DNA of 64,000 nt from Escherichia coli (GTDB lineage: Bacteria; Pseudomonadota; Gammaproteobacteria; Enterobacterales; Enterobacteriaceae), in NCBI RefSeq assembly GCF_003790525.1, contig NZ_CP033635.1, one strand, 5' to 3'. The position numbers were made by a program. This document shows, piece after piece, positions 51,001 through 54,000 of the stretch; the stretch's first letter is position 1, and every line of letters begins with the position of its first letter.

Positions 51001-54000
51001 TCCTTGCTCCGGCCTGGTTTTATGTTCATAAGTCCTTCTTCACCAGTATCTTTGTAAACCTTCACCCAGTGCCAGATAATGGTTTCATTTGATATATTAA
51101 ACTGTGTAGTGGCCTAGCGCATGGTAAGTTCTTCACTCAAACCTTCAGGACAACTGTCAGTCGAAACTCAGGAGATCCGCGGTCATTTTGCCATGTAATA
51201 CCATCAATACCGTGGAGTTGCCAGCCCTTGACCCAGCATCGCTCTGATGTTTCTTCAACACCAAAACGTTCAGCGGTACGACGTGTACCATCGTGTCCGG
51301 CAATATAATGATTAACTACAGCTTATTCGGTTTAGAGAAAATATTTTGGCTTTGCCATAAAAACTAACCTTAATCAGTTGGATGTCCAACTTTTGGAGGG
51401 AGAGTCCAACGATGGTACAGGATTTATTCATGTTAATTTTTCACAAACTCCTTTATTCGTGTGATGTTAATCACAAAATACCAAAGAGAACGTTGAAAAA
51501 ATAATGATACATTGTAAAAGATATATTAATTAATTTTTCATAATTTTATTATATATGCTGCATGTCAATTATTTATATATCAAAAACCGAACAAAAATAT
51601 TTATTATAGGTATTATGAAATAACCTTTCCATATTGTTTATTTTAATGCAATCAGCACAGATTACTTCAAAAATATAATTAGATGCATGAAAAGGGAGAA
51701 ACAATATATTTTATTGTTTAAGATATTTTGTTCAACATGTATGCTGAGAGATAAACTTATCGATACTTAAAAAATCCGAAAAGGAGGAATAATGATAATA
51801 AAAAGAGAAAGACGTTTCCTGAGAACAGTAGAATGGCTTGGCAATGCACTTCCTCATCCCGTCATCCTGTTCATAATATTAACAATTTCCTTAATTGTAG
51901 TTTCGATGATTGGACAATATTTTAATATTAGCGCCCCAGACCCAAGACCACCTGGAGCTAAAGGCCGGAATGATGATGGTATTATTTATATTGTAAGTTT
52001 ACTGGATGCAGATGGAGTTCGTAAAATTCTTTCGAATCTGGTTACTAATTTTACGGGATTTGCACCACTGGGCACTGTTCTGGTTTCTCTTCTTGGTGTT
52101 GGTATTGCAGAACGGTCCGGGTTAATTTCAGCAACCCTTCGTCTTATTGTGACAAAAGCCCCTGCAAAAGTAACAACTATAGCTGTTGTCTTTGCCGGTA
52201 TCATGTCCAACATGGCTTCAGAACTTGGCTATGTCGTTTTAATACCACTATCGGCAATACTTTTTCATTCTCTGGGAAGACATCCCTTGGCCGGGCTTGC
52301 TGCTGCTTTTGCGGGAGTCTCGGGTGGCTATTCAGCAAATTTAGTATTAGGTACAATCGATCCGCTCTTGTCAGGAATCACCCAGCAAGCAGCGCAAATT
52401 GTATCATCTGATTATATTGTAGGGGCTGAATCCAACTGGTATTTTATGTTTGTCAGTACATTTTTTATAACACTCATGGGGTACCTGATAACAGAAAAAA
52501 TAGTTGAACCACAGTTAGGGAAATACAAGGGTGGAGGGTTCAATCAGGATGAACAGTCAATTCGTAATTCATCTGATGTTACAGCAGTTGAGAAAAAAGC
52601 GTTAATGCTGTCCTTTTTATCTGTACTTCTACTATCTGTTATTGTTGCCATTCTGGTTATTCCTGAAGATGGAATCTTACGTAATCAACAAACAGGATTA
52701 ATCAGCAATTCTCCATTTCTTAAATCAATAGTGGCTTTCATTTTCATATTCTTTTCATTAGCTGGTGTAGTATATGGATATACAGCGGGAACAATAAAAA
52801 ATAGCAAAGATATTGTTGATGCCATGACTCATTCAATGAGTACATTAGGACTTTATCTGGTCATTATATTTTTTGCCTCTCAGTTTGTAGCTTTGTTTAG
52901 CTGGACAAATATTGGTCAGGTTATTGCGGTTAAAGGCGGGAGTTTTCTGAATAGTCTTGATTTGCCAGATTCCGTAATATTTATTGGATTTATATTGATT
53001 TGTGCTGTCATTAATTTAATGATTGGGTCCGCATCTGCTCAATGGGCAGTAACAGCACCAATTTTTGTTCCTATGTTAATGATGGCAGGATATGCCCCTG
53101 AAGTAATACAGGCTGCTTATAGAATTGGAGATTCAGTAACAAACATTATTACTCCAATGATGAGTTATTTTGGGCTTGTTATGGCTATTGTACTTAAATA
53201 CAAAAAGGATGCCGGTGTTGGGACTTTGATATCAATGATGCTTCCATACTCCATAGTTTTCCTCGTCGGGTGGTCTGTATTCTTTGTTATATGGGTCTTT
53301 GTACTGAACTTACCCGTTGGCCCCGGGGCATCGACCTATTATCTCCCATAAAGTCAATCATACATATCATAATGGAGAATATTATTCTCCATTTCCAGGT
53401 TGAATCAATATTAAACCCATGCAGCCATAAAAACTTTAGCATTTTAAGTGTCAGGATGTTTCTATGTAAAAATCACAATAATTTACACAACACAAATAAA
53501 TATATAGTTGATTACATTGAAGATTGCAATCACAATGTAATTAAATAGAAAATCAATTGTATGACTCCGGCTCAATGCCGACTTAACATCTGTATGCTGA
53601 GGTAAGTTTACGCTTCCGACTTTCTGTTATTTTGGTGATTATATTTTCAGGGGAAATTAAAAATGAATAAAGTTTATTCCCTTCGCTACAGCGCTGTGGC
53701 CCGGGGCTTTATTGCTGTATCTGAGTTTGCGAGGAAATGTGTTCATAAGTCTGTCAGAGGCCTGAGTTTTCCGGTTTTATTACTGTCCCCCGTACTTTTC
53801 TCTACAGGAGGCCTTGCGGGAACAGTCAATAATGAACTTGGCTATCAGTCATTTCGTGATTTTGCTGAGAATAAAGGTATGTTCCGCCCGGGAGCAACGA
53901 ATATCGCCATTTATAATAAGCAGGGAGAGCTTGTCGGCACGCTGGAAAAAGCGGCTATGCCGGATTTCAGTTCCGTAAATTCAGGAAGCGGTGTGGCGAC

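Follow-up and report, generated by a model that had tools for sequence, protein, structure and literature searches.

A gene for a predicted transporter lies directly upstream of a protease autotransporter gene in the chromosome of Escherichia coli, which raises the questions what the transporter carries, in which direction, and whether the two genes belong together. The window (the whole stretch of 64,000 nucleotides that was analysed) is an island riddled with IS elements. Taken as a whole, our analysis makes it probable that the gene encodes a horizontally acquired exporter of the MtrF branch, and that its adjacency to the protease gene is a matter of history and not of function.

An intact gene of the AbgT family and the MtrF clade

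The ORF list of the window contained an intact frame with an ATG start on the + strand, exactly the low-GC frame of 519 aa that the earlier note had placed at 51792-53351 (Table 1). Its GC content is 0.389 (38.9%) and its GC3 0.292 (29%). With the base composition of the gene one would expect a stop about every 16 codons, and the chance of 519 open codons is ~2.5e-15. The consensus ribosome binding site claimed for it is present as well (AAGGAGG, 4 nt before the ATG), as is the protease autotransporter gene said to follow immediately, an S6 gene which starts 311 bp downstream. In the structure-sequence alignment with Neisseria gonorrhoeae MtrF (PDB 4R1I) the N-terminus of the protein matches MtrF from residue 4 onward, which supports the ATG as the start codon.

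Table 1. Features of the transporter locus (positions in the window; strand + or -, or a point where none applies)
Feature	Position	Strand	Remarks
YebF-family pseudogene (ψyebF)	50388..50741	+	Internal stop; RefSeq 'YebF family protein' pseudogene
Putative IS2 terminal fragment	50872..50894	.	23 bp; 100% match to positions 8497-8519 of the E7-1N7 locus (L011)
Decayed IS3-family 5' part (orfA region and left end)	50990..51421	-	Reads away from the transporter gene
AT-rich leader	51422..51780	+	~25% GC; 356 bp up to 51777; not common to the E7-1N7 relic (homology begins at 51778)
Shine-Dalgarno sequence AAGGAGG	51781..51787	+	4-nt spacer to the transporter ATG
AbgT-family transporter CDS, MtrF clade	51792..53351	+	519 aa; ORF, PF03806, TIGR00819, 4R1I, tree, RefSeq
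Hairpin, 10-bp perfect stem, 3-nt loop	53371..53393	+	20 nt past the stop codon, followed by UUU only
IS3-family scar	53435..53586	+	Last ~150 nt of a transposase gene, inside the 311-bp transporter-protease spacer
S6 serine-protease autotransporter (SPATE) gene, separate unit	53663..57487	+	1274 aa; Peptidase_S6 and autotransporter beta-barrel

The DNA is identical to the gene for RefSeq WP_000584526.1. RefSeq names for the protein among the carrier genomes are "AbgT family transporter" (WP_000584526.1, WP_053287690.1), and two of the 28 RefSeq genomes label it "AbgT family antimetabolite efflux transporter". It is an ordinary member of the family, already catalogued by RefSeq as an AbgT family transporter, and its anatomy does not depart from that of its relatives.

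The assignment to the AbgT family, which the earlier note had made to depend on an AbgT match, was borne out by the HMM of PF03806 (ABG_transport; E = 1.3e-210; 700.4 bits, cutoff 27). This profile is matched end to end (positions 1-502 of 502), and the protein is therefore an AbgT-family protein. The model TIGR00819 ("AbgT family antimetabolite efflux transporter") was passed by less than 3 bits (756.1 bits, cutoff 753.55), and the equivalog model for E. coli AbgT (NF008459) was failed with 385.2 bits against a cutoff of 864. Among solved structures, N. gonorrhoeae MtrF gave 792 bits in an alignment of residues 4-517 that contains a single 1-residue indel, and Alcanivorax borkumensis YdaH (PDB 4R0C) gave 417 bits. 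The protein contains multiple hydrophobic stretches and is collinear with both structures from end to end. Individual comparisons showed 70-71% identical aa for Neisseria MtrF and 38% for the native E. coli AbgT.

Among 5.8 billion protein sequences searched, none outside the transporter's own lineage exceeded 80% identity. The nearest sequences outside its own cluster were a second E. coli allele (80%) and the Providencia stuartii protein (76%), followed by proteins of Xenorhabdus species (72-74%) and of the avian Pasteurellaceae Avibacterium and Gallibacterium (71%) and by Neisseria MtrF (71%); tblastn gave 73.6% for the Proteus mirabilis orthologue. When a neighbour-joining tree was rooted on native AbgT of E. 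coli (38% identity), the transporter and the 80% allele came out as sister to the Providencia/Xenorhabdus group within the clade that holds MtrF, with native AbgT standing apart on a long branch. Membership of the transporter in the AbgT family and in the MtrF clade is practically certain. Its function, which the earlier note had left open, is narrowed to the MtrF efflux branch as opposed to the importer branch of E. coli AbgT; the direction of transport itself we infer.

The gene is under purifying selection, with a dN/dS of 0.08 against its nearest allele, the 80% E. coli allele; in comparisons with Providencia and Neisseria the synonymous sites are saturated.

Conserved residues and predicted transport activity

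Eight MtrF positions (E147, D193, S417, W420, P438, R446, D449 and P457) were checked, and 8/8 are conserved in the transporter. D193, S417, W420, P438, R446 and P457 are reportedly tunnel or pocket positions of MtrF. A summary of the primary work (PMC4621753) gives E147 and D449 of MtrF as proposed protonation sites; it also names N390, D429 and N433 as sodium-site residues of YdaH, which binds a sodium ion. In the alignment to 4R0C, these three correspond to N408, D447 and N451 of the transporter. The same checked positions are kept in the native E. coli AbgT too, save for one E-to-D change. Since they are also present in native AbgT, they mark a competent transporter and not the direction in which it works.

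According to the same source, expression of MtrF or YdaH in E. coli led to sulfonamide resistance together with lower sulfonamide accumulation, the activity of MtrF depends on the proton-motive force, and the family topology comprises, in each protomer, nine TM helices together with a pair of hairpins (PMC4621753). By homology, the transporter would form a dimer in the inner membrane, each protomer having nine transmembrane helices along with two helical hairpins, and would operate by an elevator-type mechanism. It may export p-aminobenzoate and related sulfonamide antimetabolites with the energy of an ion gradient, as reported for MtrF and YdaH; most likely this would be export of p-aminobenzoate and sulfonamides driven by the proton-motive force. 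In view of the 70% identity and the full conservation of sites, an MtrF-like exporter of PABA/sulfonamide-type antimetabolites is the best-supported reading, and our judgement tips slightly towards an exporter function.

The likeness to N. gonorrhoeae MtrF (TC 2.A.68) runs from end to end, broken by one 1-residue indel, and includes the eight checked positions, and TIGR00819 covers both proteins. The setting of the genes differs. Gonococcal mtrF adjoins mtrC and mtrD, whereas the E. coli gene has no RND pump as a neighbour: in the annotated island, no RND, MFP or OMF genes were found within 20 kb of it, so that this is not an mtr efflux locus. The E. coli gene also differs in its place within an IS-bounded island module and in its composition (39% GC). 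Because no RND partner is nearby, we propose that the transporter would act alone, without a partner of the mtrCDE type.

Compared with YdaH, the transporter shares family, fold and the conserved Na+-site residues N390, D429 and N433, and sulfonamide resistance is reported for YdaH as well (PMC4621753). YdaH is more distant, and the E. coli transporter has a longer loop near residues 235-260.

Import instead of export would agree with the family and fold that the transporter has in common with AbgT of the abgABT operon (PF03806), with the presence of all checked pocket residues in native AbgT, and with the name 'aminobenzoyl-glutamate transporter' that some sources give to its relatives. The transporter would then take up p-aminobenzoyl-glutamate, another folate breakdown product or a small anionic nutrient for salvage, similar to the role first assigned to E. 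coli AbgT. Against this stand the identity of only 38% to native AbgT and the score of 385 against 864 for the AbgT equivalog, as well as the behaviour of the closest characterised homologue (70% identity) as an exporter. Furthermore, no abgA/abgB hydrolase (aminoacylase-type) genes and no abgR were found near the transporter gene, the neighbours of which are the yebF pseudogene, IS scars and the S6 peptidase gene. Import is therefore unlikely, and export by an MtrF-like protein is the reading we retain.

IS remnants, a yebF-like gene and the neighbouring protease gene

Remnants of IS elements lie on both sides of the transporter gene. The downstream scar matches the 3' end of the transposase CDS and is ~75% identical to genes annotated as IS3-family transposases in over 100 genomes. 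The upstream one matches the 5' end of IS3-family transposase genes with 79-88% identity; its limit at 51421 was read from the sequence. A composite transposon around the transporter gene, or one IS split by insertion, was considered and rejected, since the IS3 scars come from different portions of the transposase gene and lie on opposite strands. The 23-bp fragment further upstream is presumably an IS2 inverted repeat or end, an identification based on the IS2 end sequence; in the locus of strain E7-1N7 the matching 23 bp lie ~70 bp upstream of an IS2-family transposase CDS, which starts at 8589.

Strain E7-1N7 carries a relic of the transporter gene, a decayed and internally deleted allele with 83-87% DNA identity. 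Homology to this relic spans from 51778, just before the ribosome binding site, to 53393, just after the hairpin, so that the end of the hairpin is also the right limit of the shared DNA. An intact yebF, to which ψyebF is 81% identical, lies beside the relic, and the protease gene is absent from this locus. ψyebF is the sole neighbour common to the transporter locus and the divergent relic allele. The older linkage is therefore that of the transporter with yebF.

Among solved structures, the nearest relative of the protease is Hbp/Tsh, the haemoglobin protease (1WXR; 1263 bits). SPATE genes on plasmids show homology (92%) only from ~53639 onward, 24 bp ahead of the start codon of the protease gene. 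In seven orthologue neighbourhoods (Providencia, Xenorhabdus, Avibacterium, a Proteus-like metagenome contig and others, including three Providencia assemblies, the 80% E. coli allele and another contig from a metagenome) no S6 autotransporter was found, and ~510 other E. coli genomes carry related SPATE genes without this transporter. The linkage of the two genes was seen only within one near-identical E. coli block.

It is conceivable that the transporter is a functional partner of the protease, co-transcribed with it and moving, for instance, a product connected with the acquisition of haem or peptides. In 28/28 carriers, and in duplicated copies, the two genes lie side by side on the same strand, and co-transcription would be possible since no canonical terminator lies between them. 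The 28 copies, being 99.7-100% identical, represent one arrangement that was inherited and copied and are not independent evidence of linkage. The spacer moreover contains the IS3 transposase remnant and, after the stop codon of the transporter gene, a stable hairpin; GC3 is 0.29 in the transporter gene versus 0.51 in the protease gene; and neither the relic allele, nor the seven orthologue neighbourhoods (S6 gene in 0/7), nor the ~510 SPATE-bearing genomes show the pair. We regard such a partnership as highly improbable.

The IS debris on both sides, the point at which SPATE homology starts, the E7-1N7 relic, the contexts of the orthologues and the ~510 genomes with SPATE genes only all argue that the adjacency is accidental, which we hold to be very probable. 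The caution in the earlier note that chance may have brought the transporter and protease genes together was thus well placed: IS scars bracket the transporter gene, the relic lacks the protease gene, and seven contexts lack an S6 gene. The adjacency would then be historical and not functional.

Distribution, origin and expression of the transporter gene

Of 5,426 complete E. coli genomes, 28 contain, with 99.4-100% identity, a 7.3-kb block that begins with the yebF pseudogene and ends with the protease gene. A search with the transporter gene alone detected exactly the same 28 genomes and one decayed relic; the copies in the carriers are 99.7-100% identical. The gene is never plasmid-borne among the carriers, and the best matches of a plasmid search were mislabelled Proteus and Neisseria chromosomes, none of them close. 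Chicken or chicken meat is the source of 18 of the 28 carriers (one inferred from the strain name), black kite of two and human of three, and for five the host is not stated. Among the 23 carriers whose host is stated, birds thus account for 20, as raw counts.

The GF60 island contains a P4-type integrase, sodC, an ABC transporter, GDPD, a ROK regulator, a YadA-like adhesin and many transposase fragments. Strains 135 and 24A16CRGN010 have second copies, in which the whole sodC-ABC-GDPD-ROK-ψyebF-transporter-protease block is duplicated. In several genomes (e.g. PK8275) the block is bordered at position 50362 of the window by a different IS3 element, and the ψyebF-transporter-protease unit thus has at least two upstream contexts. 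PK8275 was considered as a reference collinear with the entire window and rejected, as its collinearity begins only at 50362, and no complete genome spans both ends of the window contiguously.

The composition of the transporter gene sets it apart from its surroundings. The upstream ROK-regulator and GDPD genes have a GC content of 0.58 and a GC3 of 0.66-0.74, and the protease gene has a GC content of 0.50 and a GC3 of 0.51. Judged by its GC3 of 0.29 against 0.66-0.74 upstream and by the lack of any protein above 80% identity outside its lineage, the gene is of foreign origin. The Morganellaceae orthologues (P. stuartii, Xenorhabdus spp. and P. mirabilis) are its nearest relatives outside E. 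coli (73-76%) and, like it, stand-alone, low-GC genes (43% for the Providencia gene). Unlike the IS-flanked E. coli gene, they lie in an ordinary chromosomal setting, and their DNA identity of 70% means that they are not the direct donor. The donor would most probably be a low-GC gammaproteobacterium near the Morganellaceae. From there the transporter gene probably arrived in a small module together with a yebF-like gene; rearrangements mediated by IS3 and IS2 would then have put this module next to the Hbp/Tsh-like protease autotransporter gene in an E. coli island, and the assembled block would now move as one unit.

Expression of the gene was considered from its leader and its 3' end. A relaxed scan detected a sole candidate promoter in the leader, with a perfect -10 hexamer (TATAAT, 51674-51679) 112 nt upstream of the transporter ATG and a weak -35 element (TCAGCA at 51652). 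A strict scan revealed neither a sigma-70 consensus promoter on the leader's + strand nor a canonical terminator; its total of hits was no higher than in shuffled sequence. The hairpin behind the stop codon folds with -13 kcal/mol (z = -2.9); it may be a weak terminator, although the scan did not score it as a canonical one. An Rfam scan of 50300-53700 (E <= 1) for riboswitches or leader RNAs, e.g. of the folate/THF type, gave only two eukaryotic families at chance level.

AT-rich foreign leaders are typical targets of H-NS in E. coli. With a leader of 25% GC and no strong sigma-70 promoter on its + strand, the transporter gene could thus be silent. An intact transporter gene without expression or without a selectable role would simply be carried along with the island. 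The adjoining yebF-like gene has already become a pseudogene, E7-1N7 holds a decayed sister allele, and the copy in strain CM2 is one base short, all of which would fit such a passenger. On the other hand, at least 27 of the 28 carriers have an intact ORF (the CM2 shortfall being a frameshift or a sequencing error), a perfect Shine-Dalgarno sequence precedes the gene, the perfect -10 hexamer is in place, and the long-term dN/dS is 0.08. We consider silence of this kind rather unlikely, in an estimate that overlaps with those for the other alternatives, and prefer the reading as an MtrF-like exporter.

A literature search for AbgT transporters in connection with SPATE proteins or avian pathogenic E. 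coli found no relevant report, and none was found in the E. coli literature on an MtrF-type pump of this island. The transporter is a catalogued orthologue of a protein whose structure and function have been studied; it is neither native abgT nor part of an abgABT or mtrCDE locus. With a RefSeq annotation in existence and the structure and proposed role of MtrF known, the finding matters little beyond bookkeeping. It adds that E. coli bearing this island hold an MtrF-branch paralogue distinct from native abgT (38% identity), that the ancestral neighbour of the transporter gene is a yebF-like gene and not the protease gene, and that the carriers with a stated host come mostly from birds.

There is a slim chance that poultry-associated E. 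coli carry here a chromosomal MtrF-type antimetabolite efflux pump from a Morganellaceae-like donor which, if expressed, would confer tolerance to sulfonamides (or other PABA analogues) independently of sul1/2/3 and would be kept by the use of sulfonamides in poultry. Should the pump be active, it would add in a minor and so far uncatalogued way to the sulfonamide tolerance of E. coli from poultry.

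Modules of different composition in the window

Comparison of the first 25,000 nucleotides of the window (1-25000) revealed about 95% identity, in seven pieces, to an E. coli region that carries ireA, setC and YopB/SseC-family translocon genes of an ETT2-type type III secretion system. No genome collinear with the entire window was found among the complete genomes compared. Further downstream, a high-GC module (0.55-0.59) directly adjoins the transporter module, whose GC content is 25-39%; the two are therefore adjacent pieces of clearly different origin.

Coordinates of features in the window and at the compared loci
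Feature	Sequence	Position	Strand	Remarks
IS1414 transposase ORF	window	27355-28563	-	astA/EAST1 frame 27735-27848
IS1414 transposase ORF	window	33655-34860	-	astA/EAST1 frame 34032-34145
High-GC module	window	43590-50293		sodC, four-gene ABC transporter, glycerophosphodiester phosphodiesterase (GDPD), ROK-family regulator
YebF-family pseudogene	window	50388-50741	+	internal stop; ~1 kb upstream of transporter gene
Protease gene	window	53663-57487	+	1274 aa
IS1414 transposase ORF	window	57625-58833	-	astA/EAST1 frame 58005-58118
Intact yebF	E7-1N7 (L011)	7229-7582		
Protease gene, second copy	strain 135 (L017)	10870-14745		1291-aa allele
Protease gene, second copy	strain 24A16CRGN010 (L018)	10872-14747		1291-aa allele
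DUF969-DUF979-DUF2891 trio	Avibacterium (L008)	9771-12696		
DUF969-DUF979-DUF2891 trio	metagenome contig (L015)	8739-11446		
Small DJC28_CD-domain gene	Providencia (L005)	7170-7538		
Small DJC28_CD-domain gene	Proteus-like contig (L016)	8637-9026		

Protease autotransporter and IS1414 copies

The protease autotransporter belongs to the class-2 SPATEs, with Hbp/Tsh as nearest relatives, followed by Pic, SepA and EatA. Plasmid SPATE genes match the window gene at 92%, over about half its length only. About 140 bp 3' of the protease gene lies one of the three copies of IS1414 (IS256 family) within the window. Each of the three (3/3) carries, nested within its transposase gene, an intact 38-aa frame for the astA/EAST1 enterotoxin; all three frames are identical (100%) to the EAST1 sequence used for comparison.

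The transporter gene and its neighbours in other genomes

Three genomes (strains 135, 24A16CRGN010 and GF60) harbour the transporter gene at two places. As read from two of these, 135 and 24A16CRGN010, a far chromosomal site holds a second copy of the entire sodC-ABC transporter-GDPD-ROK-ψyebF-transporter-protease block. The transporter copy of strain CM2 (H155) has 1559 vs 1560 bases, and this 1-nt deletion represents either a true frameshift or a sequencing error. Birds were the host of 20 of the 23 carriers with a stated host: 18 came from chickens or their meat and 2 from black kites (raw genome counts among hits H141-H168).

Neighbourhoods of MtrF-clade orthologues showed two recurring elements: a DUF969-DUF979-DUF2891 trio near the orthologue in both Avibacterium and one metagenome contig, and a small DJC28_CD-domain gene in both Providencia and the Proteus-like contig.

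In E. coli, the YebF-family pseudogene upstream of the transporter gene has an intact counterpart in strain E7-1N7, with 81% DNA identity to the window pseudogene. Because this intact yebF adjoins a decayed allele of the transporter gene, yebF and the transporter gene look like an older, co-inherited pair.
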